DNA of 64,000 bases, from contig JBAZXG010000002.1 of the NCBI GenBank assembly GCA_041660005.1, positions 24,356-88,355 of the forward strand. The letters are read 5' to 3'. Shown here piece by piece: positions 3,318 to 58,279 of this stretch. A program made the position numbers and the translations under genes. Origin of the DNA: Patescibacteria group bacterium. GTDB lineage: Bacteria; Patescibacteriota; Patescibacteriia; GWA2-46-9. The first letter of the stretch is position 1. The number at the start of each line of letters is the position of its first letter. The notes below the pieces were generated by a model. It saw only the letters and a program-made list of their open reading frames with translations, ran no database searches and had not been told where the DNA came from.

Positions 3318-3517
3318 ATGAACTCCCTCCGAAGTGAACCAACCTATTCGAAGTTGGGTTGTGAGAGAAATGCTTTCTTCAAGCTATTCCTCTGAATTTG
3401 TGAAAATGCCATCAGAAATGCGAACTAACATTTTTATCATAATAACGAGCAGGGGTCAATTGCAGTGTATAAAAAGAAACAAAATACAGCCTTCATAAAA
3501 AGGAGCTCAATTACATT

Positions 3518-3566
3518 GCCATCCACGTCAAAAATACAAAATCCCGCCGAAAGCGGGAGTTGTATT
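3518..3566 (+). repeat. 49 nt repeat containing hairpin CCCGC-CGAAA-GCGGG; second copy at 4109..4157 where it forms the terminator beside tRNA-Lys
   Basis: identical 49-mer gccatccacgtcaaaaatacaaaatcccgccgaaagcgggagttgtatt at both sites. Confidence 0.8.
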
Positions 3567-3940
3567 CTAGTGATGCCCTTCGACCCATTCAACTTCTTTC
3601 AGGGTCGCCCTGAGAATAATCGAATGGGCGACAAGCCCAGGGCATTCAACTCACAAAATACTTGGTTTACCATGAGTCCTTCATTGCCTTAGGATAAACG
3701 AGCGAAGCGATTTATGGTGAGTTCGTCGAACCAGTCGAACGGTGGGTGGGCTCCCCTCAACGGGGACTTCTTCATTTGATAACTAGACTATGGTGAGTCG
3801 TGGGAATTATTTTTACTCCGACCTGCCCGACGGCAAGGCGGGCAAAAAGCCGGCGACCGAAGGAAGTGCTTGTGGTACTCGATTCCCTTCAATAAACGCA
3901 TAAGTAAACAAATAACCCCCATACGGGGGTTCTTGTTTAC

Positions 3941-3959
3941 TGGTGGGTCGGCTGGGAAT
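3941..3959 (-). repeat. direct copy of the 3' terminal 19 nt of tRNA-Lys (att-like), start of a ~170 nt family-2 element (3941..4108)
   Basis: tggtgggtcggctgggaat identical to 4160..4178 (3' end of tRNA-Lys incl. CCA). Confidence 0.8.
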
Positions 3960-4120
3960 TCCGCCGCACTTCGTCTTCAGCAGTACGACTCAGTGCTCTG
4001 TCCGGGGCAGCGCTGCATGCTCGATTGACTCGCATCCATCGGCGTTCGGGGTATTCGTGATTGCTTCCGCAATCACTCAGCCCTCACTGCTGCCCGTTCG
4101 ATTCCCTGGCCATCCACGTC

Positions 4121-4160
4121 AAAAATACAAAATCCCGCCGAAAGCGGGAGTTGTATTTTT
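4121..4160. terminator. hairpin (CCCGC/GCGGG, GAAA-type loop) flanked by A-run/T-run; bidirectional intrinsic terminator between family-2 element and tRNA-Lys
   Basis: aaaaatacaaaatcccgccgaaagcgggagttgtattttt seen directly. Confidence 0.6.
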
Positions 4161-4235
4161 GGTGGGTCGGCTGGGAATCGAACCCAGAACCTTATCCTTA
4201 AGAGGGATCTGCTCTACCAATTGAGCTACCGACCC
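4160..4235 (-). tRNA. tRNA-Lys (anticodon CTT)
   Basis: manual fold: GGGTCGG acceptor, anticodon loop CT-CTT-AA, TTCGATT T-loop, CCA encoded. Confidence 0.85.
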
Positions 4236-4295
4236 GGGTGGCAAATGGCCTATGGCAAATTGCAAATGGCGACTCGGGAAAATTTTCTACCTGCA

Positions 4296-4367
4296 AGTGA
4301 AAAAATTATGAGTACGTCAGCCATAGAACTTTGTTCGCTGACGCACGGAATAATTTTTGAACGACCT
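4296..4367. repeat. REP/MITE-like imperfect long hairpin repeat (family 4); other copies 12673..12744 and partial 12504..12536
   Basis: agtgaaaaaattatgagtacgtcRgccRtagaactttgttcgctgacgcacggaataatttttgaacgacct; nested inverted repeats aaaaattat/ataattttt and cgtcagc/gctgacg; the six-frame ORFs covering it (4221..4436, 12565..12768) just translate the repeat. Confidence 0.7.
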
Positions 4368-4395
4368 CTGCTTGAGGGAAAGTCCGCCACCGTTA

Positions 4396-4480
4396 AAACT
4401 ATGGCGGACAGCCCTTTCTCAAAACGTCTGGCGTAAGCCAGCCGCCGTTGAAACTATGGCTGGCTCGCCAGCCGTAACTT
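4396..4480. repeat. family-3 repeat: two tandem hairpins with conserved loop CCGTTRAAACTAT; second copy 31129..31212
   Basis: 85 nt about 90% identical between the tRNA-Arg and tRNA-Ala loci; both followed by agtgaaggc then a tRNA 3' end sequence. Confidence 0.7.
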
Positions 4481-5735: not shown

Positions 5736-6428
5736 TTACCACGACTTAACTTTAAGCGCTGCTCGAGCCGCCGACTCCTCACCCTCTTGCTTACTGGCGC
5801 CTTTCCCTTCTGCCACGAGATCACTACCTAGAAAAATGCCAATCGTAAAAATCTTGGCGTGATCCGGACCTGTTTCTGAAAGCACTCGGTAGTTCGGCGT
5901 AATGCCAACTTTCTCCTGCGCCGCCTCTTGGAAAGCACTTTTTGGATCACGGTACAGTTCATATTCTAAAATATGAGGTAGCCGAGGCAGTAACACTCGC
6001 TGGATGAAATTTTCGGCAACCGAAAAGCCTTGATCAATGTACATAGCACCAACGATCGCCTCAAAGGCGTTGGCTAAAATGTATGTTCTGGCTTTGGTAT
6101 TTGTCTCTTTCGCTTCGCCTCGTGATAAATAAAGATAATCACGCAGATGAAGTTCGTTCGCAACCTCACCGAGCATTTTTGTATTCACCAAGCTCGCTCG
6201 CCAATTCGTCAGATCCCCCTCTGGGTTCTGATAATTACGATACAAAAATTCGGTTACCACGAGCTCCAAAACAGCGTCTCCTAAAAACTCCAACCGCTCG
6301 TTGTTACCGTGTGGAAACTCCGGATTTTCGTTAAGGTACGAACGATGCACCAGCGCTTGCTCTAAAAGCTCTTTGTTCACAAAGGTAACGCCGAGGTGCT
6401 CTTCGATTTCAAAAAGATTGTGCGTCAT
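5736..6428 (-). CDS. rnc: ribonuclease III
   Basis: ERLEFLGDAVLEL signature motif, C-terminal dsRBD, 230 aa. Confidence 0.9.
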   Translation of the reverse strand: MTHNLFEIEEHLGVTFVNKELLEQALVHRSYLNENPEFPHGNNERLEFLGDAVLELVVTEFLYRNYQNPEGDLTNWRASLVNTKMLGEVANELHLRDYLYLSRGEAKETNTKARTYILANAFEAIVGAMYIDQGFSVAENFIQRVLLPRLPHILEYELYRDPKSAFQEAAQEKVGITPNYRVLSETGPDHAKIFTIGIFLGSDLVAEGKGASKQEGEESAARAALKVKSW

Positions 6429-6916
6429 GTGTTCGATGATTGATTAGATGTCTCTACGGAACTGCTTTCGTCGATGCCAGTGATGTCCTTATAAATTGCA
6501 CCGAGAACACCATTCACGAAACGACCAGAAGATTCTCCACCAAACGCTTTAGCGAGTTCGATTGCTTCGTTAATGGCAACTTTTGCCGGCACTTCGCGCG
6601 CGATTGCTAACTCAAAAATACCCAAGCGCAGAATGTTACGGTCAACGACGGTGATTTGATCGATCGGCCACTCCGGCGCGTACTTTCTTATATACGGATC
6701 AATTTCAGCAATATGCTCAACAATGCCGTCGACGAGTCGAAAAGAAAACTCTTGATCTTCGCTCCCTTGAGCAAACTCTTTAAGGTTATTGACGACAAGC
6801 GCTCGAGCAAGCGAACGCATCTCGTCAGACGAACGCCCGAGAGAGAGCGGATTGTTAAAATCGAGCTCGTAGAGCGTTTGCATGGCAACCGTCCGAGCGA
6901 GATGGCGGTTCGACAT
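6425..6916 (-). CDS. nusB: transcription antitermination factor NusB
   Basis: 163 aa, N-terminal ARTVAMQTLYELDF motif typical of NusB; overlaps rnc start. Confidence 0.8.
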   Translation of the reverse strand: MSNRHLARTVAMQTLYELDFNNPLSLGRSSDEMRSLARALVVNNLKEFAQGSEDQEFSFRLVDGIVEHIAEIDPYIRKYAPEWPIDQITVVDRNILRLGIFELAIAREVPAKVAINEAIELAKAFGGESSGRFVNGVLGAIYKDITGIDESSSVETSNQSSNT

Positions 6917-6928
6917 GCTGTAAGCTGC

Positions 6929-7174
6929 TTACTCCGCGTCCTTTTTGGCGCGGGTAGTTGCGACCGTTTTCTTCTTGGCGCTTCTGGCCTGACGAACTGA
7001 AGCCGCTGGTAGAACTTGACGACCACGGTACGTGCCGCACACCAAACATGCAGTGTGGGGTAGTTTTTTCTTGCCGCACTTATCACAGGTCGACAGCGTC
7101 ATTCGCTTAAGGGCATTATGCGACTGACGGCGACGTTTATGCGATGATGTACGGCGTTGCGCTGGTACAGACAT
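6929..7174 (-). CDS. rpmF: 50S ribosomal protein L32 (bL32) with extended basic C-terminus
   Basis: SVPAQRRTSSHKRRRQSH...CDKCGKKKLPHTACLVCGTYRGRQV zinc-ribbon L32 signature. Confidence 0.8.
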   Translation of the reverse strand: MSVPAQRRTSSHKRRRQSHNALKRMTLSTCDKCGKKKLPHTACLVCGTYRGRQVLPAASVRQARSAKKKTVATTRAKKDAE

Positions 7175-7208
7175 AGACTAAATAATAGTTAATAAACGTT
7201 ACAGCATC

Positions 7209-9707
7209 TTACCCGACCAGCGTCACAGAAGCAACCCTATCCTCTGGGTTCTTCAAGCGCATGAGGCGAACACCCTGCGTTACGCGACCGAGTAAGCTGA
7301 CTGATTTATAAGGAATACGGATAACTTGGCCAGCAGTTGAGATGACAATAATGTCCGGCATCTGTTCTTCGTCTGGCACTAAAGCGGCGCCGCCAATCAA
7401 TGGACCGGTCTTTTTGGTGACATCCGCAGCTTTGACGCCGCTTCCACCACGACCCTGCACCTTATGCTGCGCGAGCTTTGTTCGTTTACCAAAACCATAC
7501 TCACTTACCAGAATGAGTTCGTGCGCGTTGGCAGACTTACCGGCCGGCAGTACCTGCATGAGCACCACTGCATCATTGCTCTTGAGGCGAATGCCAAGAA
7601 CGCCGGCAGCAGACCGACCCATGGCACGCACGTTCTTTTCTTTGAAACGAATCGACTGACCCGCTTTGGTTACAAATAATATTTCATCCTGTCCGGTTGA
7701 TGGATGCACCCAGCGCAACGTGTCGTCCTTACGCAAGCGAATGGCAATGAGACCGGACCGGCGCACCGCACTGAATTGCTCAAAGGGCACTTTTTTAATA
7801 ACACCCCGAATAGTACCCATCACGAGGTAGGTATAGGCGGTTCGGCCCGTAACCGGTAGCACCGCGGTAACACTTTCTTCTGGAGCAAGTTGCAAGAAGT
7901 TGACGATGGCTTGACCCTTCGCTGTACGAGAAGAAACCGGAACTTCATAGGCCTTCAATTGGAAGACGCGTCCGGTCGTCGTGAAGAAGAGCAAATCAGC
8001 ATGCGTCGTTGTCGATACGAGGTGCGCAACAAAATCATCTTCTTTTGTCGTAAGACCAATAACACCCTTACCGCCGCGCGCTTGTGTGCGGAAACTGTCG
8101 GGCGGCAAACGTTTAATGTAGCCGCCGCTCGTTACTGCAACGACCGTTGCTTCGTCAGGAATCAAATCTTCTGAGGTGAACTCACCAACCGGACCTTTGA
8201 CCACAACCGTGCGGCGCGGTGAAGCGAAGCGTTCTTTCAAGTCGAGTAATTCAGTAGTCACCACGGCGCGAATTTTTTTCTGTGATGCCAAGAGAATTGA
8301 AAGTTCTTTCATGATTTGACGCTTCTCTTTTAGTTCATCTTCAATTTTCAATCGCTCCAAGTTCGCCAATTGCTGAAGGCGCATTTCCAAAATAGCAACG
8401 GCCTGGCGCTCAGAAAGTTTGAACTTCTGCATAAGCCCAAGCCGCGCTTCGTCTTTATCGGACGATTTTTTGATGAGCTTAATAACCGCATCGATGTTGT
8501 CCTCGGCAATCTTTAATCCTTCCAATATGTGTGCACGTTCTTTTGCTTTTTCCAGTTCATACTCTGCGCGGCGGCGCACAATGACCTCACGATGCTTGAC
8601 GTACTCTTCTAAAATTGTTTTAAGATTCAAAACGCGCGGCTGCTCTCCGTTGACGAGCGCCAGCATGTTTAGGTGAAACGTCTGCTGCAACTCGGTGTGT
8701 TTAAAGAGTTGGTTCAGCACCTTCTTGGGGTAGCTGTCTTTTTTGAGTTCAATCACCACCCGCACGCCAGATTTGTCTGATTCATCGCGGAGATCACGAA
8801 TGCCTTCTATTTTTTTATCCTGCACGAGGTTAGCAATGTGCTCCACAAGCGTGGCTTTGTTCACCTGGTACGGAATCTCTGTAACGATGATGCGGAACGC
8901 ACCGTTCTTTTCTTCTTCAATTTCCGCTTTGGCGCGCGTAACAATTGAACCGCGGCCGGTGCCGTAGGCCTCACGCACCGCTTTGGCGTCATAGATGGTA
9001 CCGCCGGTCGGGTAATCTGGTCCGGGAATAAAGCCAATGAGATCTTCAACCGTGGCTTCAGGATGCTCAATTAAATAAACCGTAGCGTCAATGACCTCAC
9101 CAAGATTGTGTGGTGGAATGGACGTTGCCATACCAACGGCAATACCCGCAGTACCGTTGACGAGCAGGTTAGGAACCTTGGCAGGCAAAACCAACGGCTC
9201 TTCATGCGTGCCATCATAGTTCGGCACATAGGTAACCGTGTTCTTTTCGAGATCAGCAAGAATTTCCTCGGCAATAGGGGACAATTTCGCTTCCGTATAA
9301 CGCATGGCAGCCGCACTATCGCCATCCATCGAACCAAAGTTACCTTGCCCAATAATGAGCGGCTCGCGCATGGAGAAAGGTTGCGCCAAACGAACCAGCG
9401 CTTCATACAACGCGCTGTCGCCATGGGGGTGGTATTTACCCATCACTTCACCGACGACTGTTGCGGATTTTCTTGTTTTACCGCTAGCGCGAAGTCCGGT
9501 CTGGTTCATGGCAAACAAAATACGGCGCTGCACGGGTTTCAAACCGTCGCGCACATCGGGAAGCGCCCGCGAAACAATGACTGACATCGCATAGTCAATG
9601 TAGGACTGTTCCATTTCAGCAACCAACCCGCGCTGCTCCACCTGGCCAACGTCTTTGACAATGGTGATTTCCCCTTCTGCTTTTTTCTTCTCCTGGTCTT
9701 TTTTCAT
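7209..9707 (-). CDS. gyrA: DNA gyrase subunit A
   Basis: 832 aa; [11 protein letters not shown] active-site Tyr region, [14 protein letters not shown], GyrA-box-like QARGGKG in C-terminal beta-pinwheel. Confidence 0.9.
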
Positions 9708-9715
9708 AAACGTAT

Positions 9716-10288
9716 CTATGGCTGTACGGGTAATGACTTCGGTGCAGTGTTCTCTATTACTTTCTGTTTCAATACATCGAGTTCTTCTGGTGTCAGTGGC
9801 TCCGCGCTTGCAGTATTGTTCGGCGCTACCTCAGGCGAAGCTGACGGCACGGGTATATCCTTGATCTGGCTCACCGTACTTTTGAATAACGATGAAAGAT
9901 CATTCGTGGCCTTCATAAGTTCTTGTGGTGGTTGGACACTCGGCACAACCAAGGAGTAGCGAAGCGACCATGCCCACCCAAACACAATCAAAAACATCAT
10001 ACCAGAAACTGCTGCCCACAGCGCCAACTTCCGATTCTCCTGCTTTGTGGTATTCACTGAAAAAGAACCAGTACTATACGTAGGCAATGATTCTGACGGT
10101 AGCGTCCCAACGACCGCAGTTTCAGAGTCAACTACTGTAACAATGTTTTCATCTACTGCCGCGTCTTTTTCAATGACCGCTTTTTTAGCTCGCGCCGGAC
10201 GCACCAAATCAACCGCAGTTTTTCGCGGGCGAGTCGTTCGTTTTTTCGGCACCTTAGGCGTCGAGGATGACAAGCTTGGTTTCGTCAT
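9716..10288 (-). CDS. hypothetical single-pass membrane protein with Lys-rich N-terminus and low-complexity C-terminus
   Basis: 190 aa, one TM helix ([20 protein letters not shown]). Confidence 0.4.
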
Positions 10289-10856
10289 TGGGAAGATCTT
10301 TCTTGGTCACGACAAATTTTTTGAGATGCTCCACGGTTGCCTGACCAAGTTCTTTCGCAAAGGTACCAACCGGTTCCAGTTTTGGGGCAGACTCTTCTTT
10401 GAAATGCATAGGAATAATAATGCGCGGCTCGATTTTGTTCACAACCGCCGCTGCTTCGCTTGAGCTAAGTACTTCACCGCCACCAACCGGCACAAACAGA
10501 ATATCTACCCCCTCCAAAAGCTCTGCCGCTGTTTCATCAAGCTCTTTTTGATTACCAAGATGTCCGATATGCACACCATCGACGACCATTCGAAAGACGG
10601 TTTCTCTATTCGCTCCTGATGCTTGCCCTTCAACTAAAACCTCTTTTACTTCGTACTCCCCCGGCGTTTCAATAATGAATGCATTATCCTTTAAAAAATC
10701 TCTTTCTTTCTCGGGGTAGGAACGTAACAGCAGCAAAAGGTCGGCCGCCACTTTGGGCATACGATTGCCTTTTGAACCTTCAAAAGGATCGACGACAACG
10801 GTCGCCGATTTCCCCTCAATTTTAAAACAATTCTGGCCGAGCCAGGTGATAGTCAT
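10254..10856 (-). CDS. MBL-fold metal-dependent hydrolase (UPF0173 family)
   Basis: 200 aa, motif pattern of UPF0173 beta-lactamase-fold hydrolases (HIGHLG, VPVGGG). Confidence 0.7.
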   Translation of the reverse strand: MTITWLGQNCFKIEGKSATVVVDPFEGSKGNRMPKVAADLLLLLRSYPEKERDFLKDNAFIIETPGEYEVKEVLVEGQASGANRETVFRMVVDGVHIGHLGNQKELDETAAELLEGVDILFVPVGGGEVLSSSEAAAVVNKIEPRIIIPMHFKEESAPKLEPVGTFAKELGQATVEHLKKFVVTKKDLPNDETKLVILDA

Positions 10857-12444: not shown

Positions 12445-12798
12445 CCTTAAAATGAAAGCGTAGCAAGGCGCGGCTAGTTACCACAACACCCAAGGAACCT
12501 GCGAGTGAAAAAATTATGAGTACGTCGGCCGTAGAATCCCGACGCCATCATTGTTAATACGTCAATGAATCGGGATCCCGACTTCTCGTCGGGACTTCTG
12601 GGTAGCTTTCCTGTTTCTACTATTTGCAATATGCTATTTGCTATTCCTGTTTTCCTTAACGTCTTGCTCGCGAGTGAAAAAATTATGAGTACGTCGGCCG
12701 TAGAACTTTGTTCGCTGACGCACGGAATAATTTTTGAACGACCTCATGCTGAGGGAAAGGAATATTAAGGAAAACCGGGCGGTTTTCCTTAAAGTCTT

Positions 12799-12814
12799 GC
12801 CGGAGGAGGGACTC
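12799..12814 (-). repeat. direct copy of 16 nt of the tRNA-Leu 3' end (lacks CCA), start of family-1 element (12799..12940)
   Basis: gccggaggagggactc identical to 12975..12990 in tRNA-Leu. Confidence 0.75.
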
Positions 12815-12941
12815 CGCTTCGCTAGAACCCTCGTCGCTACGCTCCTCTCTGACACCTTGCGGTTTCAGTACTTCCACTGCGGGAAACCTCCCGGTTTCCC
12901 GACCCCATCCCCGGGTTCGAGTCCTGCTCCAAATACCAAAA

Positions 12942-12970
12942 AGTCCCCGACGAAATCGTCAGGGACTTTT
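12942..12970. terminator. hairpin AGTCCC..GGGACT plus T-run between family-1 element and tRNA-Leu
   Basis: aagtccccgacgaaatcgtcagggactttttg. Confidence 0.55.
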
Positions 12971-18315: not shown

Positions 18316-18750
18316 ATGCACAAAGTTCGCGGTCATTTTTTGTTCGGTACGGCAATACTCAGTATGCTCATGCTACCAATTTTAGTTAGCGCAGCTGGCC
18401 TTATTCCAGCCAACTGTACCGCGATCGGCGCATCAAACTGTGGCCTGCTTGATTTCCTTCAACTCGGCAACAATATCTATGAGTGGCTCTTTGGTATTCT
18501 CGGCAGCGTAACGCTCGTCATTTTTATGTATGGTGGGCTCGTTTGGCTCACTTCGGCAGGCAATGCGCAGCGCGTCGAGCAGGGAAAAAAAATCTTTGAA
18601 GGCGCGCTCATCGGCTTAGCTCTTATTTTTAGTTCCTGGCTCATTGTGAATTTTGTTGTCACCGCACTAACGGGAGGAGATTTGGAGAAACCAGCTACGA
18701 TCTTCAATCGTCCTGCGCTCGAAGCACCAGCAACACTCCCTACGCAATAG
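18316..18750 (+). CDS. VirB2/TrbC-like (T4SS-type) pilin paralog 1
   Basis: signal peptide, TM helix, loop motif YGGLVWLTSAGNAQRVEQGKK, second TM; family motif GG..WMTA.GNEE. Confidence 0.65.
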   Translation: MHKVRGHFLFGTAILSMLMLPILVSAAGLIPANCTAIGASNCGLLDFLQLGNNIYEWLFGILGSVTLVIFMYGGLVWLTSAGNAQRVEQGKKIFEGALIGLALIFSSWLIVNFVVTALTGGDLEKPATIFNRPALEAPATLPTQ

Positions 18751-18857
18751 GTTCTGCATTGACCTTTTTGTCATTCACCCTTATGCTAATAACAGCAGAA
18801 TTATATCGTAGCTGCCAACCCTTAGCTCCCACCGGGAGATCGAGAGGAGGTGATACC

Positions 18858-19250
18858 ATGAAGAAACAACTCATCAAACGACTCGCAGCAACAGGCGTCG
18901 CCATCGGCATGATGGCGCCTTTGGTTGCTTTTGCTCAGGGCAGTGACCTCAACAACTCCCTTGATCTTAATAACATCGGCAATGAACTCGGTCTCAGCCA
19001 AGAGACGAACGTTAAAATTGTCGTAGCAAGAATTATTCGCGTCCTCCTCGGCTTCCTCGGTATCGTCGCAGTATTAATCGTACTTTACGGCGGATTCCAA
19101 TGGATGACTGCAGCAGGTAACGAAGAACGCGTTTCATCCGCTCGCGCCACTTTAACGGCTGGCCTTATCGGTCTCGTTATTATTTTGAGCGCTTACGCTA
19201 TCGCTAGCTACATCATCACCACGATTCTCGACGTCACTTCGGCAAACTAA
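18858..19250 (+). CDS. VirB2/TrbC-like pilin paralog 2 (ORF track 18759..19250; start set at MKKQLIKRL after RBS GAGGAGG)
   Basis: YGGFQWMTAAGNEERVSSAR loop motif between two hydrophobic helices. Confidence 0.65.
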   Translation: MKKQLIKRLAATGVAIGMMAPLVAFAQGSDLNNSLDLNNIGNELGLSQETNVKIVVARIIRVLLGFLGIVAVLIVLYGGFQWMTAAGNEERVSSARATLTAGLIGLVIILSAYAIASYIITTILDVTSAN

Positions 19251-19329
19251 TAGTTCATTGAGTAACTAGAGAGTTAGCTACACCCCTCGCCTTTTTGGGC
19301 AGAGGGGTGTAGTATTATGTACATAAAAC

Positions 19330-19731
19330 ATGTCCTGGTCAGCACGCACAACTCTTCGAGCCCTGTCGCTTACCTTACTGTTGGCTACTGTTTTAGTCGC
19401 CGTACCGATCTTTGCCCAAACGTCAGATCCTTCGTACGGACTTAACAAAACAGCAACAGAAGCTAAACTGAACGTCAGTCAAAATTTAAATCAAGTCATC
19501 GGTGGCATCATTAAAACGACGCTCAGTATTGCGGCCATACTGTTTATGATTACCATCCTTGGTGCCGGTCAAATGTGGTTGGCCTCAGAAGGTAACGAAG
19601 AAAAAATAGAAAAGGCGCGTGGCATTATTTTTAACGCGGCAGTGGGTTTTATGATTACCTTTGGCGCCTACCTCGGCACTGATTTTATATTAAACGCAGT
19701 TTTCTCAGCAGTTGGCATTGGCAGTAAGTAA
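19330..19731 (+). CDS. VirB2/TrbC-like pilin paralog 3
   Basis: GAGQMWLASEGNEEKIEKAR motif. Confidence 0.65.
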   Translation: MSWSARTTLRALSLTLLLATVLVAVPIFAQTSDPSYGLNKTATEAKLNVSQNLNQVIGGIIKTTLSIAAILFMITILGAGQMWLASEGNEEKIEKARGIIFNAAVGFMITFGAYLGTDFILNAVFSAVGIGSK

Positions 19732-20162
19732 TGGAAAATATGAACAAAGGATTCTCTCTCGCATTTGTTACAGTAACTTCGCTCGTTTTTATTATTGCGG
19801 GCATTCAACCGTATGCGGTCAATGCAAGCGGTCCAAGTGGTCTTTCTAACCTCGTTAAAAATAGTTTCCAAGAAGCCGGCAACGCCGCAGGGCTCAAACC
19901 TAGTACTAACGACTTGTCAGTACTTGATCTCTTTGGTCTCTATGTGGCCGTAGCCCTTGGCTTCATTGGGGTTCTATTCCTTGTACAAGTAGTGCATGGC
20001 GGCATTCTATGGATGAGCGCCGGTGGCAATGAAGAACAGATTACGCACGCACGGAAAAAAATTCTAAACGCAGGCATAGGAGCAGCTATTGTTTTTGCCT
20101 GCTTCGTCTTTACCGTTTTCATTATGACGCAAATCGCAACCACGGTTGGGGTACAATTTTAA
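19731..20162 (+). CDS. VirB2/TrbC-like pilin paralog 4
   Basis: HGGILWMSAGGNEEQITHAR motif. Confidence 0.65.
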   Translation: MENMNKGFSLAFVTVTSLVFIIAGIQPYAVNASGPSGLSNLVKNSFQEAGNAAGLKPSTNDLSVLDLFGLYVAVALGFIGVLFLVQVVHGGILWMSAGGNEEQITHARKKILNAGIGAAIVFACFVFTVFIMTQIATTVGVQF

Positions 20163-20619
20163 TATGCAAAATTCTTCAAAATTCTTAACAGCGACCGCAC
20201 TCTGCTTGCTGCTCTTTGCCCCACTGGCAACCGCGCAGGCCACCACTGGTTTCCGTTCATCCTGTGACACGAATCAAATTCAAGGGTTTGGCGCAGGGTT
20301 AAGACGTGTGGCATGCGACGCTGGTCTCATATCTTCAGCTGAGGGTGGGGACTCAATCAACGAAGACACTATTATTCAAATTTTTGGGAGTGTTATAAGC
20401 TTGGTTTTTGGCTTTGTTGGAGTTGTCTTTGCGGTTTTGACCATCTATGGTGGCTACCTCTGGATGACGGCTCGCGGCAATGAAGAGCAGGTGCAGCAGT
20501 CGCAAAACTACATTCGTAACTCAGTCATTGGTATCATTATTGTGCTCGCTGCTTTCTCTATCACCCAGTTTATTATTGCGCGTCTTATTTCCGCGGTTTC
20601 CCAAACATCAGTATTATGA
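20146..20619 (+). CDS. VirB2/TrbC-like pilin paralog 5
   Basis: YGGYLWMTARGNEEQVQQSQ motif. Confidence 0.65.
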   Translation: MGYNFNMQNSSKFLTATALCLLLFAPLATAQATTGFRSSCDTNQIQGFGAGLRRVACDAGLISSAEGGDSINEDTIIQIFGSVISLVFGFVGVVFAVLTIYGGYLWMTARGNEEQVQQSQNYIRNSVIGIIIVLAAFSITQFIIARLISAVSQTSVL

Positions 20620-21029
20620 AATCACCTTCCTTGTGGAAAAGCATTGTTAACGCAGCAATCTTACTTTCCTTGCCAGCTGCTGCGGCTGCTGACACCAACA
20701 GTTCTTCTGGTTTTGAAGCAGTGCAACATAACCTCGGAGTTCTTCAAACCTTTGTCATTGGCGACCAAACACCGCAAACACCACAAGAGATTATTGCTCG
20801 CGTCATAGGCATTGCCCTTGGCCTCATTGGCATCGTCTTCGTTATTCTCATGATCTACGGTGGATACCTTTGGATGACCGCTCGCGGCAATGAAGAGCAG
20901 GTCAACAAAGCGCGAGATTTAATTATTCAATCAATTATTGGTGCTGTTATTGTCTTTCTCGCCTATTTTGTCACCGCCTTCGTCGTACAACGAGTAGGAG
21001 AAGCGGTCTTTGAACCAATTTTCTATTAA
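20616..21029 (+). CDS. VirB2/TrbC-like pilin paralog 6
   Basis: YGGYLWMTARGNEEQVNKAR motif, 18 nt identical to paralog 5 over the loop. Confidence 0.65.
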   Translation: MKSPSLWKSIVNAAILLSLPAAAAADTNSSSGFEAVQHNLGVLQTFVIGDQTPQTPQEIIARVIGIALGLIGIVFVILMIYGGYLWMTARGNEEQVNKARDLIIQSIIGAVIVFLAYFVTAFVVQRVGEAVFEPIFY

Positions 21030-21447
21030 TCATATGAGCATGAAAAAACTAGTAGCGAGCTCTCTTCTCTTTTTCGTGCTCATGGCAACAGGGGTCTCTT
21101 TTGCTTCAGCTGCTGTTGCACCACTGGACGAAATTTATCATAACTTGGGGCCGATTGCTAACACCTACGGACAGAGCTCTCTCCTGGACTCCCAAAACAC
21201 GCAACACGCACTAGTAGTGCGAGTTGCTCGAGTTATTAATGTCGCTCTTTCACTTCTCGGAATCATTTTTTTAGTACTCACCATCTACGCTGGTGCACGT
21301 TGGATGACGGCTCGAGGTAATGACGAACTAGTAACAACGGCTCGGGATACCTTACTCAATGCCCTTATTGGACTTGTTATTATTTTTGCCTCTTACGCCT
21401 TTACTACCTACCTGGTAACAAAAATTCTACAGGGAACAATTGGATAA
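21010..21447 (+). CDS. VirB2/TrbC-like pilin paralog 7
   Basis: YAGARWMTARGNDELVTTAR motif. Confidence 0.65.
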   Translation: MNQFSINHMSMKKLVASSLLFFVLMATGVSFASAAVAPLDEIYHNLGPIANTYGQSSLLDSQNTQHALVVRVARVINVALSLLGIIFLVLTIYAGARWMTARGNDELVTTARDTLLNALIGLVIIFASYAFTTYLVTKILQGTIG

Positions 21448-31128: not shown

Positions 31129-31212
31129 AACTATGGCGGACAGCCTCAACTCAAAACGTCTGGCGTAAGCCAGCCGCCGTTGGAACTGTGGCTGGCTCGC
31201 CAGCCGTAACTT
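31129..31212. repeat. family-3 double-hairpin repeat (second copy, see 4396..4480)
   Basis: aactatggcggacagcc...gccgtaactt about 90% identical to the copy beside tRNA-Arg. Confidence 0.7.
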
Positions 31213-31262: not shown

Positions 31263-31282
31263 TGGTGGACCTGGGGGGAATC
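31263..31282 (-). repeat. direct copy of the 3' terminal 20 nt of tRNA-Ala (incl. CCA), start of family-1 element (31263..31410)
   Basis: tggtggacctggggggaatc identical to 31460..31479. Confidence 0.8.
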
Positions 31283-31420
31283 CGTCACTCCGCCCGTCGG
31301 CGGAGCTCCTAGAACCTGTCGCTTCGCTCTTTCAAACCCATCGGTTTGAATAATTCCGCCGCAGGGAAACTCCCGTTTCCCCGACCCCTTTCCCGTGTTC
31401 GATTCCCTCGCAGTATATCA

Positions 31421-31460
31421 AAAAATAAATTAGCTGGCATATAGCCAGCAATTTATTTTT
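31421..31460. terminator. bidirectional terminator hairpin GCTGGCatatAGCCAGC flanked by A/T runs
   Basis: aaaaataaattagctggcatatagccagcaatttattttt. Confidence 0.6.
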
Positions 31461-43378: not shown

Positions 43379-43515
43379 ACATCTTGAATGTTTTCCTTTA
43401 AACTATATTTTCATGAGGGCAAATGGGGCGCTCGATAAAAAACATGGAATTCCTTTTAGGAACTAACTGACTTTTCGGTGGTCACGACTACGTCTTGACC
43501 TATTTTATTGATGTC

Positions 43516-43702
43516 GGAGAGGGAGGGATGCTTCGCTTGTGGAACCCGTCGCTACGCTCTTTCAAACCCAGTTGCTTGGCGCGACACTTACTGATCTTTG
43601 ATTTTGCTGTTGATGTCAGTTTGAATAATTCCGCCACGGGAAACTCCCGTTTCCCAGCCTGTCCGCCTTCGGCGGAACCCCTTCCCGGGGTTCGAATCCC
43701 TA
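43516..43702 (-). repeat. family-1 element (copy A) beginning with a 14 nt copy of the tRNA-Ser 3' end (43516..43529); marks the left border of the island
   Basis: ggagagggagggat matches 58195..58208 of tRNA-Ser; body shares cgctctttcaaaccca..gtttgaataattccgccRcgggaaactcccgtttccc..ggttcgaatccct with the Ala and Leu loci; contains a 50 nt insertion in the P1 loop. Confidence 0.7.
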
Positions 43703-43926
43703 CCAACTATTCTAAGTGGTCTGTGCATTACCCTACAAGAGAGGAGGATTCGCCTACAAGTCGCCTCGCCTTCCGGCTTGGCGCTCGCAGGCCGCCCCTC
43801 GCGGTCTTGCTCGCCCAATTGCGTCGCAAGACATCGCTGCGGTCTTCGAATCCCTCACGCGAGCAAAGCAGTTTGCTCGCTCCTCTCCTCGGCGTTTTTA
43901 TCTTTGATATTTTAAGGAAACTCCTC

Positions 43927-44150
43927 GGAGAGGGAGGGATTTCCGCGTTCCTCGTCGCCAGCATAGCGACTCGTCGCTCTGTCCGGGGCAGCGCTGAAAG
44001 CTGCGCCCGCTCACTTTCATCGGCGCTCGCTTCATTCGCTTTGTCTTCCGCCAAAACTCATGGCTCGCTGCTGCCCGTTCGAATCCCTCTCCATCTTACC
44101 AAAAATGAGCTGTGCCGCCCACGCACACGTGGGCACCACAGCTCATTCGG
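43927..44150 (-). repeat. family-2 element (copy B) beginning with a second 14 nt copy of the tRNA-Ser 3' end (43927..43940), followed by a long hairpin
   Basis: body shares ctctgtccggggcagcgctg...catcggcg...ctgctgcccgttcgaatccct with the element next to tRNA-Lys; 11 bp stem hairpin aatgagctgtg/cacagctcatt at about 44103..44149. Confidence 0.7.
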
Positions 44151-44412
44151 TGTGTCGCGGTCTAGAACCGCCCCATCGCTAGTATTGTAAGGGGTTTCAA
44201 GGGGTTTGGCGATTCAGCGTTTTTAACCGTCTCGGTCGGGGTCTGCTTGAGAAGAGCGAAGCTGAATGCCAAAAAATGCCAAATATTTTCACCTGCCATA
44301 TTATATACAAATAGCGTACTCCTGCTCAGGATACGCCTATTACTGTTATTAAATGCGGATTAGCACCCTCCTCTCTCATTGAGCGCACCACAGACTTTTG
44401 GCATTTGACGAA

Positions 44413-50029: not shown

Positions 50030-51116
<1,087 letters not shown>

Positions 51117-51122
<6 letters not shown>

Positions 51123-51485
51123 ACATCCCCTATAACTAAAGTGCAGCAAGAAATACCGATTGTGCAAAAACTCTACGATCTCTACAAAACCTTCTACGGC
51201 TTCGCCGTGCTTTTTCCGAAGAAAGATAAGTACACACTCGGCGCAAAGTGTGAACAGTACATAATCAACACACTGGAATTGATACTGGCAGCAAGTGCAG
51301 TTACTCCGGCAGAGAAGCTTGGTCTACTACGTCAAGCAAACGTAAAGTTCGATACGCTTAAGGTATTTCTTCGATTATCCCGTGAGATTGGAGCAATCGA
51401 CGCGAAAAAATATCTTGTCCTCCAGAGAGAAATTCAAGAAATTGGTCGCATGCTTGGCGGCTGGCAACGGTCGCTCAGTGCATAA
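51117..51485 (+). CDS. avd: DGR accessory variability determinant Avd (four-helix-bundle protein)
   Basis: 122 aa; KLYDLYKTFYGFAVLFPKKDKYTLG...EIGRMLGGWQRS resembles Bordetella phage bAvd (..EVGRILGSWIAR) and the four-helix-bundle family; start ATG overlaps RT start in palindrome ATGCAT. Confidence 0.75.
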
Positions 51486-51544
51486 TCAACATCGGGGACC
51501 TGTAAGAACAGAATCCCCGAGCCAACTGCTATCGTAGACACAAT

Positions 51545-51663
51545 CCGAGGAAGGACACTCCACCAGAGTAGTTGTCGTTCGCATTCGCAAGATTCGTCCT
51601 GTTGTCGAACTCGAGCTTATCGTCGTTCGGGTTCAGGTAGAGCGAGTACTCAGCGGACTGCCA
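51545..51663 (-). repeat. DGR template repeat (TR)
   Basis: 119 nt about 89% identical to 52085..52203; 12 of 13 differences are at TR adenines (coding strand). Confidence 0.85.
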
Positions 51664-51965
51664 GAATATACCATTCCCCACCGATATGCACCGGCCCTCG
51701 GCCAGAGTTTCCTCTAGCTCCGAGCCTGAATTTTATTCGGTTCATTAGAGAACCCTAGAAAATGGTACGTAGTGTCTACGTGCTCTGCATACGCTCTGGC
51801 AATCAAGTATTTCCTTACCTGACAACTACCAGACTCTGATACATTGATGAGCATGAAGGATTTCGGCGGCCGTGATTAGATGAAGCCAACCACGGTACAT
51901 GAGCCTAATCTCAAAAGCAGTGTAGCATCAGTTCTCGTTTGTTGAAAAATTTTGAAAAAGGAAAA

Positions 51966-51990
51966 GCGGCATGACTGGAAATCATGCCGC
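51966..51990 (-). terminator. terminator hairpin for the DGR target gene (GCGGCATGA/TCATGCCGC), T-run on minus strand
   Basis: 9 bp stem, followed on minus strand by ttttcctttttcaaaattttt. Confidence 0.55.
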
Positions 51991-52080
51991 TGTCCGTAGG
52001 AGGGATCCGGAAGAAAACCGGAAGACCAAAAACCGAAATCCTTGGTCCAAGGTTCAAACTTCCGAAACCCGAAGTCCACA

Positions 52081-52983
52081 CTACCCGAGGAAGGACACCC
52101 CACCAGAGGAGTCGTCGCACGCATGCGCAAGAGCCGTCCTGTTGTCGAACTCGAGCTCCTCGTCGTGCGGGAGCAGGTAGAGCGAGTACTCAGCGGACTG
52201 CCACTGGTAGGCGGAGAGGTCGATCACCGGGGTGTTGTTGTCCCGGCAGATGACCTCTGGCCACATGATGGCTGAGAGGATGGCGTTGAAGCCGTTGAGG
52301 ATGAACCCCTCCGGCAACGTCGCCATCTGCTCACGCTGGGCGTGCACCGAGAATCCCTGCGTTGCACAAGGCAGCTCGATCGTGGCGATCGGACCTTCCT
52401 TGGCGCGAACGAGGAGAAGATCGAGCCGACTCTCCGGCACGACCGTCACTTGCCCTTCGAGCTGACCCCGACGGTGGTTGGTAAAACCACGACCAGGGAA
52501 CTCGGCCTTGTACGCACGCTCGAGCGCCGAGAGAAGAAACTCGAGCATCTGGCCGTGGTCGTGGACAACCATCTGCGGAACGATGATTGGCAGGTGCACA
52601 CCCATCCCGACGTTCACCACCGAGGAATCGTCGAGGATGACCATGAGACGGCCGACCTCGTCCTCGAACCAAGCCGCGTCGGGCAACACGATGTTGCCTT
52701 CGAAGGCGTGATCCATGCGCTCGCGACGAGCTGCGTAGTCAATGACCTCCGGCTGGAGCAGATGGTACGCGCGATTGGCGTCGCAGACCTTGGCCTTGAT
52801 GCCACGAGGTGGAATACGCCGACCGTGACGATCGAAGAACATCGAGATGACCTCTTCGATCGTTACCTTGGCACCGGCCAAGATTGCGTTCACGGCTCCG
52901 AGCCCGTCGCCGCCGTAGACGCATCCCAGCAGATCGATGAGCTTCTCGTTCTGATTCCCTGTCAAAGATCCGTACTTTGCCAT
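52081..52983 (-). CDS. DGR variable (target) protein; VR occupies the last about 40 codons
   Basis: 300 aa, GC-rich; C-terminus ...QSAEYSLYLLPHDEELEFDNRTALAHACDDSSGGVSFLG aligned to TR-encoded ...QSAEYSLYLNPNDDKLEFDNRTNLANANDNYSGGVSFLG (Asn AAC/AAT codons diversified). Confidence 0.8.
   Translation of the reverse strand: MAKYGSLTGNQNEKLIDLLGCVYGGDGLGAVNAILAGAKVTIEEVISMFFDRHGRRIPPRGIKAKVCDANRAYHLLQPEVIDYAARRERMDHAFEGNIVLPDAAWFEDEVGRLMVILDDSSVVNVGMGVHLPIIVPQMVVHDHGQMLEFLLSALERAYKAEFPGRGFTNHRRGQLEGQVTVVPESRLDLLLVRAKEGPIATIELPCATQGFSVHAQREQMATLPEGFILNGFNAILSAIMWPEVICRDNNTPVIDLSAYQWQSAEYSLYLLPHDEELEFDNRTALAHACDDSSGGVSFLG
52085..52203 (-). repeat. DGR variable repeat (VR) at the 3' end of the target gene
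   Basis: see TR; adenine-specific substitution pattern. Confidence 0.85.
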
Positions 52984-54895: not shown

Positions 54896-55085
54896 AGCCC
54901 CCCGCCAGCGATAGCCTTACGGCTACCCATACCCGTTTCCAGGTATGACCGGTAAGGGTGCTCTGACGAGGAGCCCTTTATTCCTTACCGGTTTTCGGCC
55001 ATGCCCAGAGCGAACTCTGAGTTTAGGCCATACTCAAATTGTGCTCACATGGTAGCAGGGAAACCCCTATAAATAAAGGGTCTTT

Positions 55086-56540
55086 ATGGGGACTTACCTA
55101 CAAGTTACCTACAGCTCGTTTAGGGACTTTTTGCGGATTCCAGTGATTCTAGCCGCTCTGGACTCCCTAGAGGGGTTGCGTCATCAATGTGGCTATATGA
55201 ACCACGGTAATACAACGGGGCCGGACGGAGCGGACGCCCCAACCAAGGAACAACCGCTCCCTATTAACGTGCGGTACTGCCTGTACGCAAGGAAAAGTAC
55301 CGAATCGGAGGAACGCCAGATCCTCTCCATTGATTCGCAGATTAAAGAGATGCTGGAATTGGCTGAGCGGGAGGGGTTGGAGGTAGCCGAGATAAGGCGC
55401 GAGAGCCACTCGGCTAAGAGTTCTGGTGCGAGAAAGGTGTTCAACGAAATCCTCGTTGACATTAGAGGGGGCCGCTTCAATGGACTTCTAACCTGGGCTC
55501 CAGATAGGCTTGCGCGTAATGCGGGTGACCTAGGGTCGTTAGTTGACCTTATTGACCAGAAAACGCTTATTGAAATACGCACGTTCAGCCAACGGTTCAC
55601 GAACAACCCGAATGAGAAATTCCTCCTCATGATTCTCGGCAGCCAGGCAAAGCTCGAGAACGATAACCGTGGCATTAATGTCAAGCGCGGTATGAAGACC
55701 CGCTGCGAAATGGGACTACGGCCGAACGTCGCACCGACCGGATACTTGAATGAGAAACGGACGGATAAAAAGTGCCACGCTATCGTTGACCCCGAACGTG
55801 GGCCCATCATCAAACAAATGTTTGAGAAAGTAGCGAACGAACACTGGTCAGGACGGAAGCTCTACCACTGGTTGAAGTTCGAGTTGAACTTTAAGACCAA
55901 AGGAAATAAAAACTTGTCGCTCTCCAATATTTACATCATCATCAATAATCCCTTCTACTACGGTGTCTTCGAATTCCCGCGAGGCAGCGGTAACTGGTAT
56001 ACCGGAATCCATACGCCACTAGTCGCGAAGGAGCTCTACGACCAAGCCCATACCCAGTTAAAGCGTGACCGCATTGTCCGAGCTGAGATTAAAGAATTCG
56101 CCTTCACGAAGCTCCTAGCCTGTGGCGATTGCGGGTCTGGAATCTCGGCTGACGAGAAGTACAAGCATCTCAAAGATGGCACCATGGCACGGTATGTGTA
56201 CTACGGCTGCACGCGAGCAAGAAACCTGCACTGCAAAGGTGGATACATCCGCGAGGAGGAACTGATCAATCAAATGATTGCCATCATTGATCAGCTCGAC
56301 ATCAACGAGATTGGCATGCGGTACAAGTTTGACGAAGAGATGGCAAGGCTCGCCAAGTTCCAAAAGAACTTCTACGGCGCAGCTGGCGGCACCGCACCTA
56401 AACTTGAGAACGTGGACTTGAAGGGCTACGCCAAATACTTACTGCGCGAGGGCAGCGTCATTGAAAAACGTGAACTCATGGCCTGCATCAAAAGCAAGCT
56501 CGTGCTGACGCGGAAAGTGTTGACGCTGCAAACACAGTAA
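55086..56540 (+). CDS. large serine recombinase/integrase (start probably at internal Met about 55197)
   Basis: resolvase catalytic domain YARKSTESEERQILSIDSQ, recombinase domain, zinc ribbon CGDCGS...YYGCTRARNLHCKGG, C-terminal coiled coil. Confidence 0.8.
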   Translation: MGTYLQVTYSSFRDFLRIPVILAALDSLEGLRHQCGYMNHGNTTGPDGADAPTKEQPLPINVRYCLYARKSTESEERQILSIDSQIKEMLELAEREGLEVAEIRRESHSAKSSGARKVFNEILVDIRGGRFNGLLTWAPDRLARNAGDLGSLVDLIDQKTLIEIRTFSQRFTNNPNEKFLLMILGSQAKLENDNRGINVKRGMKTRCEMGLRPNVAPTGYLNEKRTDKKCHAIVDPERGPIIKQMFEKVANEHWSGRKLYHWLKFELNFKTKGNKNLSLSNIYIIINNPFYYGVFEFPRGSGNWYTGIHTPLVAKELYDQAHTQLKRDRIVRAEIKEFAFTKLLACGDCGSGISADEKYKHLKDGTMARYVYYGCTRARNLHCKGGYIREEELINQMIAIIDQLDINEIGMRYKFDEEMARLAKFQKNFYGAAGGTAPKLENVDLKGYAKYLLREGSVIEKRELMACIKSKLVLTRKVLTLQTQ

Positions 56541-58019: not shown

Positions 58020-58189
58020 ATATAAATTTAAGAACAGGTCTATCTTAGCTCAAATCTCACAATAAACAAAAAAGACCGGGTGACCGGTCGTTTTTGTTTT
58101 GGTATGCCAATAACATGCAGTAGCGTGGGGGAACCGTCTCGGTCGCGCTGACCTATCGACTGACTCGGTCCCTCGATACTAAATGTTGT

Positions 58190-58279
58190 TGGCGGAGAGG
58201 GAGGGATTCGAACCCTCGAGGCCCTTGCGGGCCTACCGCTTTTCGAGAGCGGCACCTTCAACCACTCGGCCACCTCTCC
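58190..58279 (-). tRNA. tRNA-Ser (anticodon CGA), class II
   Basis: manual fold: GGAGAGG acceptor, GCCGAGTGGTTGAAGG D-arm, anticodon loop CT-CGA-AA, long variable arm GGCCCGCAAGGGCC, TTCGAAT, discriminator G, CCA. Confidence 0.85.

Follow-up and report, generated by a model that had tools for sequence, protein, structure and literature searches.

Positions 3941-4159 of the window (the whole stretch of 64,000 nucleotides analyzed here) hold the youngest unit in a tandem array behind a tRNA-Lys gene. We classify this unit as a non-autonomous tRNA-integrating element with an unusual covarying, attC-like recombination structure. Our preferred interpretation, to which we give a little less than an even chance, is that the unit is a gene-less mobile element that is site-specific for the T-loop of tRNA-Lys, and that its body is a recombination site acting as a folded single strand. 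What we observe is the anatomy of the unit, a family of homologs, conservation of structure, a shared target motif, and presence or absence of the element between relatives. The family is widespread in CPR/Patescibacteria, is real and non-random, and apparently has not been described before. Genomes in this group are tiny, and the mobile elements characterized in them are few. An element of 100-150 nucleotides that colonizes many tRNA genes without inactivating them, and that conserves fold over sequence, would indicate a recombination route undescribed for tRNA targets.

Anatomy of the element and its neighbors in the window

The tRNA-Lys(ctt) gene resides at 4160-4235 on the minus strand (ARAGORN and Rfam; 71 bits). 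A preliminary description of this DNA had reported a copy of the tRNA 3' end at 3941-3959 (TGGTGGGTCGGCTGGGAAT), and all 19 nucleotides indeed match 4160-4178, with the repeat starting 200 nucleotides downstream of the gene. The identity with the tRNA 3' end breaks off within the T-loop, past nucleotide 58, and we estimate the expectation of a chance 19-mer match in 64 kb at about 5e-7. An insert flanked by a direct repeat of a tRNA 3' end, here 19 nucleotides long and exact, is characteristic of tRNA-targeting genomic islands. T-loop recombination with an element-borne tRNA 3' end, as carried out by T-loop-class integrases, characteristically leaves a repeat that stops in the T-loop. We interpret the left repeat, on the minus strand, as the displaced old end of tRNA-Lys (nucleotides 58-76, including CCA), and the last 19 nucleotides of the present gene (4160-4178) would have been supplied by the element. 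In contrast to such islands, the 200-nucleotide unit was found to contain neither an integrase nor a real ORF. One nominal ORF (3943-4224) was rejected as a coding sequence: it has no Pfam match and no homolog among 5.8 billion proteins, and it is open only because the strand is poor in A nucleotides.

The body of the unit (3960-4108) is 149 nucleotides long. It begins with a short junction (J1, TCCGC) and a hairpin, hp0 (3966-3996), formed by GCACT and AGTGC with an inner GTC/GAC pairing. A long-range helix, P1, joins GGGCAGC (4005-4011) to GCTGCCC (4089-4095) and encloses two further hairpins. The first, hp1 (4014-4038), pairs TGCATGC with GCATCCA around an 11-nucleotide loop, and the second, hp2 (4049-4083), has a GGG/CCC base helix, a stem formed by GTGATTGC and GCAATCAC, and a TTCC loop. 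An outer helix, P0, pairs GGGAAT of the tRNA fragment (3954-3959) with ATTCCC (4101-4106). The segment at 4096-4120 on the plus strand opens with GTTCGATTCCCT, which had been noted earlier as T-loop-like. This motif is an inverted copy of the T-loop and T-stem of the host tRNA itself, with nucleotide 59 agreeing in every copy, and a diverged copy of the acceptor 3' strand comes after it. The interval 4121-4159, with a GC-rich hairpin (stem 4133-4149) and a run of T nucleotides, is predicted to be an intrinsic terminator on both strands and would be carried by the element. One long imperfect palindrome extends from the inverted copy through the terminator to the tRNA end.

The units share a common order on the plus strand: an antisense tRNA 3' fragment that extends to T-loop nucleotide 57-59, a body of 65-190 nucleotides, the inverted copy, a terminator, and the intact tRNA. 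The inverted copy presents the T-loop and T-stem of the host tRNA in sense orientation (GTTCGAxTCCC), in some copies together with a diverged or perfect acceptor strand. The motif GTTCGAWTCC occurs eight times in the window compared to 0.26 expected occurrences, four times on the minus strand in real tRNAs and four times on the plus strand at element ends.

A second member of the same family (family 2), which we call copy B (43925-44150), forms the far border of a 14-kb island at tRNA-Ser. It comprises a 16-nucleotide fragment (43925-43940) equal to the tRNA-Ser 3' end at 58190, a body (43941-44089), and a terminator (about 44100-44150). Covariance model R1, described below, scores 151.6 bits for the Lys body and 156.2 bits for copy B. 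The alignment of 3955-4114 to 43936-44095 has zero gaps and 73-75% identity, with exact blocks (GCTCTGTCCGGGGCAGCGCTG, CATCGGCG, and CTGCTGCCCGTTCGAWTCCCT) separated by variable blocks of equal length, and GTCCGGGGCAGCGCTG is present in the window only at positions 4000 and 43981. The preliminary description had proposed the tRNA-Ser fragment, the conserved blocks common to the two bodies, and the GGGCAGC/GCTGCCC pairing. All of these are borne out: the bodies align gap-free over 3960-4108 and 43941-44089, and the pairing is found in both window copies and in 10 of 12 homologs.

Units of other families have the same layout. Family-1 units are located at tRNA-Leu and tRNA-Ala (12799-12970 and 31264-31459) and at the tRNA-Ser border, a unit of a third kind is also present, and each comprises a fragment, a structured body, an inverted T-loop copy, and a terminator. 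At the tRNA-Ser border, a family-1 unit (43513-43700), a unit of a third kind (43739-43870), and copy B stand in tandem. The earlier claim that every tRNA of the window except tRNA-Arg has such an element is correct, with family-1 units at tRNA-Leu and tRNA-Ala and none at tRNA-Arg. The match of nucleotide 59 to the host tRNA extends to the five window units of these other families, including the unit that faces tRNA-Leu with its unusual GAGT loop.

Older, decayed units of the Lys array occupy 3507-3940 and leave an inverted end with its terminator (3507-3566), a hairpin (3752-3766), a tRNA fragment (3789-3808), and a terminator (3914-3931). One older unit can still be traced through its fragment TGGTGAGTCGTGGGAAT (3789-3808), the short body that follows, CTCGATTCCCT, and its terminator (3914-3931). 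At 3542, 3752, 3914, and 4133, terminator-like hairpins recur with a spacing of about 200 nucleotides, and seven terminator-like sites were found compared to 1.9 expected. The terminator next to tRNA-Lys had been described as duplicated at 3518-3566. This duplicate is real and slightly longer than claimed, since 3507-3566 and 4098-4157 are 93% identical over 60 nucleotides. Recombination at this locus, which had been proposed on that basis, is upheld, whereas a separate duplication event is not, because the second terminator is a remnant of an older array unit.

Other repeats are present in the window. Modules D3 (about 90 nucleotides) and D4 (about 84 nucleotides), whose copies are 92-93% identical, flank tRNAs at 4293-4480, 12497-12759, and 31129-31212, and at 6182-6330 of locus L025 in a relative. 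Module D3 and a conserved terminator (TTAAGGAAAACC..GGTTTTCCTTAA) recur in relatives after tRNA-Arg (L025) and after a displaced Lys fragment (L024). A further repeat family, D2, with a period of about 430 nucleotides, corresponds to six tandem paralogous genes with T4SS_pilin domains (18316-21447).

Homologs of the element and conservation of its fold

At least 12 distinct family-2 homologs are present in metagenome contigs from CPR/Patescibacteria, where they are located beside 10 tRNA species. A metagenome scan with the 21-nucleotide 3' block yielded 10 loci, all of which are true homologs with identical layout, and three of these are duplicate or partial records of one sequence. Covariance model R1 was built on six copies. 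In the window it recovers only the two family-2 copies, and outside the window it recovers L024/L022 and ten strain variants of a Parcubacteria population. A literature search returned no description of the family, a 19-mer scan of genome contigs gave chance matches only, and viral contigs and collections of phages and plasmids gave no match to the element. Same-strain contigs from other samples end at the repeats, and neither an excised circle nor a polymorphism between strains was observed for family 2. The proposal of the preliminary description that tRNA-linked elements of this kind constitute a family made by recombination is supported by the homologs, by covariation, and by the empty site of a relative.

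The occupied tRNAs are Lys, Ser, Trp, Gly, Gln, Ala, Glu, Asn, Arg, and one of Ser type, and the orientation of the element is constant. Every occupied tRNA has the T-arm GGG-TTCGAWT-CCC, and neighboring tRNAs with other T-arms (Thr, Tyr, Pro, Phe, and Ile) are empty of elements. In 11 of 11 copies, the A or T at T-loop position 59 of the inverted copy is the one found in the host tRNA or fragment. A canonical terminator separates the tRNA from the body in most copies, and in 9 of 12 it is the only feature between them. Identical terminators are present on both sides of the element in L012, and the flanking terminators differ in the window and in L024. Target-site duplication of the tRNA end plus terminator was considered and rejected, as it fits L012 but fails for the window and L024. 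Reverse transcription primed by a tRNA, with the fragment serving like a retroviral primer-binding site and with a DGR reverse transcriptase nearby, was rejected on two grounds: in L012 and L015 the terminator is part of the repeat, and the repeat ends at nucleotide 58 or 57 rather than 59.

The orthologous loci L013 and L016 carry different tRNAs, namely tRNA-Gly(tcc) at 4234-4307 and tRNA-Ala(tgc) at 826-899, respectively, with the same degenerate Gly-type fragment to the left of the family-2 body in both. The inverted end in L016 fits Ala, and therefore the inverted end, the terminator, and the tRNA were swapped as one unit.

Evidence for a conserved fold comes from pairing in P0, P1, hp1, and hp2, within a small dataset of 12 copies. 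When six copies are aligned with MAFFT, 91.4% of the cells are paired compared to 78.8% in shuffles, and 11 of 28 pairs have changed on both sides. When eleven distinct copies are aligned to the covariance model, which biases the alignment towards the structure, 93.8% of the cells are paired compared to 78% in shuffles, and 15 of 28 pairs (41 cells) carry compensatory changes. Sliding the partner strand by 1-3 columns lowers pairing to 38-47%, and one-sided variation is seen in 0 pairs. P0 is paired in 100% of 11 sequences, and its nucleotide-59 pair flips between A-T and T-A in step with the host tRNA. P1 and the adjacent GTTCGAWTCCCT are nearly invariant, and in L026 the helix carries a C-G to T-A change (GGGTAGC/CCTACCC). 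Two-sided changes affect all seven pairs of hp1 across the family, and covariation is evident in seven of the eight pairs of hp2. The hp0 arm folds but is variable, including a compensatory change between L013 and L016, and is missing from L012 and L014. Such an imperfect palindrome, in which structure is kept and sequence is not, is also a property of integron attC sites.

The cells that are not Watson-Crick pairs differ between the strands. Nine are A.C on the plus strand, which is equivalent to G.T or G.U on the tRNA-sense strand, and eight are of other types, five of them in one poorly aligned hairpin. On the plus strand, 0 G-T pairs are found in 273 cells, and thus a plus-strand RNA is unlikely. 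We consider it improbable that the body is a gene for a small structured RNA read on the minus (tRNA-sense) strand, whether such a gene arrived as mini-cassette cargo or arose in situ. Its 3' end would consist of the displaced tRNA 3' end and the old terminator, and P0, P1, and the conserved junctions would be the architecture of the RNA. Such a gene agrees with the finding that all nine wobble-type cells read as G.U on the minus strand, against zero on the plus strand, with an hp2 loop that reads GGAA (GNRA) on the minus strand of four copies, and with a minus strand rich in purines and poor in U. Functional RNAs also usually combine an invariant helix with conserved junctions and covarying peripheral hairpins, and minus-strand folds are the more stable in four of five units of other families. 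However, in most copies a transcript in the tRNA-sense direction would meet a strong intrinsic terminator immediately before the body. The body has no predicted promoter-like site, no Rfam family matches 3941-4108 at the gathering threshold, and the folding z-score is only -2.1. An RNA gene also leaves unaccounted for both the direct repeat and the T-loop copy that tracks the host tRNA, and mutation bias can yield strand asymmetry. If the body is nevertheless an RNA, it would represent a new widespread structured RNA. Two specific candidates were rejected. A tmRNA or permuted tmRNA is disfavored by score and length, with 16 bits against a threshold of 47 that derive from the tRNA end and terminator only, and ARAGORN calls no tmRNA. 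A putative hammerhead core (CUGA..GAA around hp0/hp2) failed a hand check, with G8 and A9 absent.

A proposed folded-strand integration model and known recombination systems

We infer that the body folds as single-stranded DNA rather than as RNA. In the integration model that we prefer, the element would enter between T-loop nucleotides 57 and 58 of tRNA-Lys and bring its own tRNA nucleotides 58-76 and terminator, shifting the original 3' end 200 bp downstream as a 19-nucleotide fragment. Because the tRNA 3' end is borne by the element, the tRNA would remain intact, and repeated integration would stack tandem arrays behind the gene. The 149-nucleotide body would be the recombination site of the element, active as a folded single strand. 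P0, formed by the tRNA fragment and the inverted T-stem copy, would provide a duplex identical to the 3' arm of the target. The invariant P1 would be a second arm, presumably bound by protein, and the 7-nucleotide T-loop copy between P0 and P1 would be the central region.

Plus-strand cleavage at GGG/AWT in both partners, with exchange of that strand alone, would give both of the observed junctions. The incoming target strand AWTCGAAC would be fully complementary to GTTCGAWT of the element, which would account for conservation of this block and of the nucleotide-59 match. If the sites are instead read as double-stranded, the overlap of the element (AWTNNCG) shares only AWT with the target (AWTCGAA), which is too little for two-strand exchange. 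A single-strand exchange by a tyrosine-type recombinase supplied in trans, finished by replication, is the chemistry that we propose. Such a route, with a folded single strand, one-sided exchange, and a trans-acting enzyme, would account for tRNA flanks stacked with short repeats and small islands (DGRs and defense genes). The covariance model offers a concrete tool for tracing the responsible enzyme through co-occurrence.

Two features do not follow from the model. All nine wobble-type mismatches are G.T on the tRNA-sense strand, which counts against a folded plus strand and conflicts with the polarity argument, which needs the plus strand to be exchanged. The asymmetry could alternatively reflect C-to-T decay on the lagging-strand template in presumably old, island-displaced copies, to which five of the nine cells belong. 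In addition, the terminators that are unlike in the two Lys copies and those that are identical on both sides in L012 are, in neither case, simply predicted by integration.

The wobble asymmetry keeps alive both the minus-strand RNA and a derivative of a single-strand transposon (an IS200/IS605-type PATE or another HUH substrate), although we view the latter as very unlikely. On this reading, insertion would take place on the tRNA-sense strand, 3' of GTTCG, and the left end of the derivative would include the tRNA 3' copy. In its favor, it is the tRNA-sense strand, the template of lagging-strand synthesis, that appears to be folded, the ends are rich in hairpins, orientation is fixed, and the inverted T-loop copy could serve as a base-pairing guide to the target. 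However, no Y1/HUH gene and no Y1_Tnp match was found at any of the loci. The two end hairpins are unrelated, unlike the similar subterminal hairpins of IS200/IS605 ends, and the hairpin nearest the left end, a terminator, differs between copies.

More generally, the element resembles MITEs, PATEs, and REPINs in being small, non-coding, hairpin-rich, multi-copy, and non-autonomous. It differs from them in its strict specificity for tRNA T-loops and in its long, functional direct repeat, which replaces the short target duplication. We know of no parent IS for the element.

In integron attC sites, as in the element, the ends and the fold are conserved and the intervening sequence is free. Both have two helices of about 7 bp (the R and L boxes of attC; P0 and P1 of the element), a short spacer, and a variable terminal structure, and crossover would occur at the spacer-proximal end of the R-like box. 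Like integron cassettes, the units are non-autonomous and are stacked in tandem beside a fixed primary site. In contrast, the attC core sites (R'' RYYYAAC and R' GTTRRRY) are absent from the element, whose core is GTTCGAW(T), with C at position 4, and whose partner AWTCCC is taken from the tRNA. Its primary site is a tRNA T-loop rather than attI, its repeat of at least 19 nucleotides restores the tRNA, and a 30-50-nucleotide arm (hp0) resides in one spacer strand. Its cargo is a terminator only, and no IntI was found. A tyrosine recombinase beside the array, as in intI/attI loci, was likewise not found in the scanned window ORFs or flanks. No integrase is present in the flanks of gene-less copies, nor among the other ORFs of the window within the top 25 families.

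It is possible, if on the doubtful side, that CPR bacteria maintain an integron-like cassette system anchored at tRNA genes. Folded single-strand sites composed of P0, the T-loop copy, and P1 would recombine with any tRNA T-loop of the form GGG-TTCGAWT-CCC. The arrays behind tRNAs would then correspond to arrays of cassettes, with the gene-less units as minimal selfish members. If true, this would represent a new class of site-specific recombination system, with tRNA genes in the role of primary attachment site.

The attP(+) sites of CTXphi and IMEX elements, which depend on XerCD, offer a second parallel. There, too, a folded strand mimics the duplex of the host target, one-sided central homology predicts exchange of one strand completed by replication, and a host-type recombinase would act in trans. 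The element differs from these systems by targeting a tRNA gene instead of dif, by lacking a phage genome, and by its length of about 200 nucleotides.

Relatives, an empty site, and larger islands

The PilT protein encoded beside the locus is 100% identical to a MAG protein from a 'Patescibacteria group bacterium' and 81% identical to a Candidatus Uhrbacteria protein. Two relatives have syntenic loci (gyrA-nusB-rnc-pilT-tRNA-Arg-tRNA-Lys). The L025 site is empty, with a plain terminator behind tRNA-Lys. In L024, the tRNA-Lys 3' end is the same as that of the window, and a 4.3-kb DGR insert (Avd and reverse transcriptase) without an integrase follows. On the far side of this insert are an exact Lys fragment and a family-2 body that has 12 differences from that of the window in about 150 positions (about 92% identity). 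One of the 12 is a compensatory G-C to C-G change at the base of hp2, and another restores pairing at a C.C mismatch in hp1. To the left, the two Lys copies have unrelated flanks, and therefore they look like independent acquisitions of closely related elements.

The L024 DGR island (6432-10750), which is inserted at the tRNA-Lys 3' end, contains a target gene in addition to Avd and the reverse transcriptase. Its distal end carries a hairpin made from an inverted copy of the last 8 nucleotides of the tRNA (CTGGTGGGA..TCCCACCAG).

A cassette-like system at a T-loop was also observed in another CPR lineage, where a 0.73-kb cassette with one HAD-like gene is present in one strain (L026, 4025-4870) and absent from another (L027, 4493-4620). 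It is bounded by 33-nucleotide direct repeats that consist of two hairpins. These repeats are placed within the T-loop of a pseudo-tRNA-Arg, a copy located shortly downstream of tRNA-Arg(tct).

Three loci have a family-2 copy at the tRNA-distal border of a larger insert: the Ser island of the window, the L024 DGR island, and an island in L017 with an OLD nuclease and restriction genes. These arrangements, and the fact that tRNA 3' direct repeats are a classic island signature, are consistent with the copies being decayed attL/attR arms of ordinary integrase-bearing islands, with the short units as deletion remnants like the CIMEs left by ICEs. We regard this explanation as unlikely. In 9 of 12 copies, nothing except a terminator lies from the body to the tRNA, and double-stranded arm sites give no cause for compensatory changes in three hairpins. 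A CIME would share att sites with a related autonomous ICE or island; the three inserts appear to begin at separate partial tRNA copies, and one carries a serine recombinase and another no recombinase. The L024 island lacks an integrase. In L024, L017, and L014, the larger insert begins past an additional partial copy of the tRNA end, 6-12 nucleotides long, that is located behind the terminator of the element (TGGTGGGACGGC, TGGCGG, and TTGTTGG). Such copies fit sequential integration at a different tRNA sublocation, and thus we take the islands to be later, separate arrivals, although this is not clear for the Ser island of the window.

Our preferred reading of the units as gene-less mobile elements retains several likenesses to islands with T-loop crossover (the sublocation classes of Williams 2002; tycheposons) and to CIMEs. 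In these islands, the block of identity likewise extends from the T-loop as far as the 3' end of the tRNA, and the tRNA is restored by the inserted DNA. Tandem accretion arrays are known for both, and CIMEs also lack recombination genes of their own. The element is unlike them in having no genes at all, a body with a conserved covarying fold, and an inverted T-loop copy, and in that a single element family spans at least 10 tRNA species.

The Ser island of the window encodes a large serine recombinase, a LOOT RNA, methylases, an AAA ATPase, and a DGR. The preliminary description had allowed that the shared segments might prove to be an att arm of an island with an intact integrase. A serine recombinase is indeed present in this island, but most copies have neither an island nor an integrase, and serine integrases are not known to create a 19-nucleotide repeat. 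An att site for a large serine recombinase was also rejected at the junction itself, where the half-sites lack dyad symmetry and a long repeat would not be left by such enzymes. A 14-nucleotide direct repeat, AACCGTCTCGGTCG, at 44224-44237 and 58133-58146 lies near both ends of the 14-kb island, and these repeats may be its true att sites, apart from the family-2 unit.

The LOOT RNA (RF03000, 90.7 bits) is at 54910-55029 on the minus strand, directly upstream of and divergent from the gene for the large serine recombinase (55086-56540, plus strand). The DGR of the same island is complete (50030-52203), with a reverse transcriptase (50030-51167, minus strand), Avd (51024-51485), a TR at 51538-51663, and a VR at 52078-52203 that forms the 3' end of an ORF (52081-52983, minus strand). 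Of the 15 mismatches between TR and VR, 13 are at adenines of the TR.
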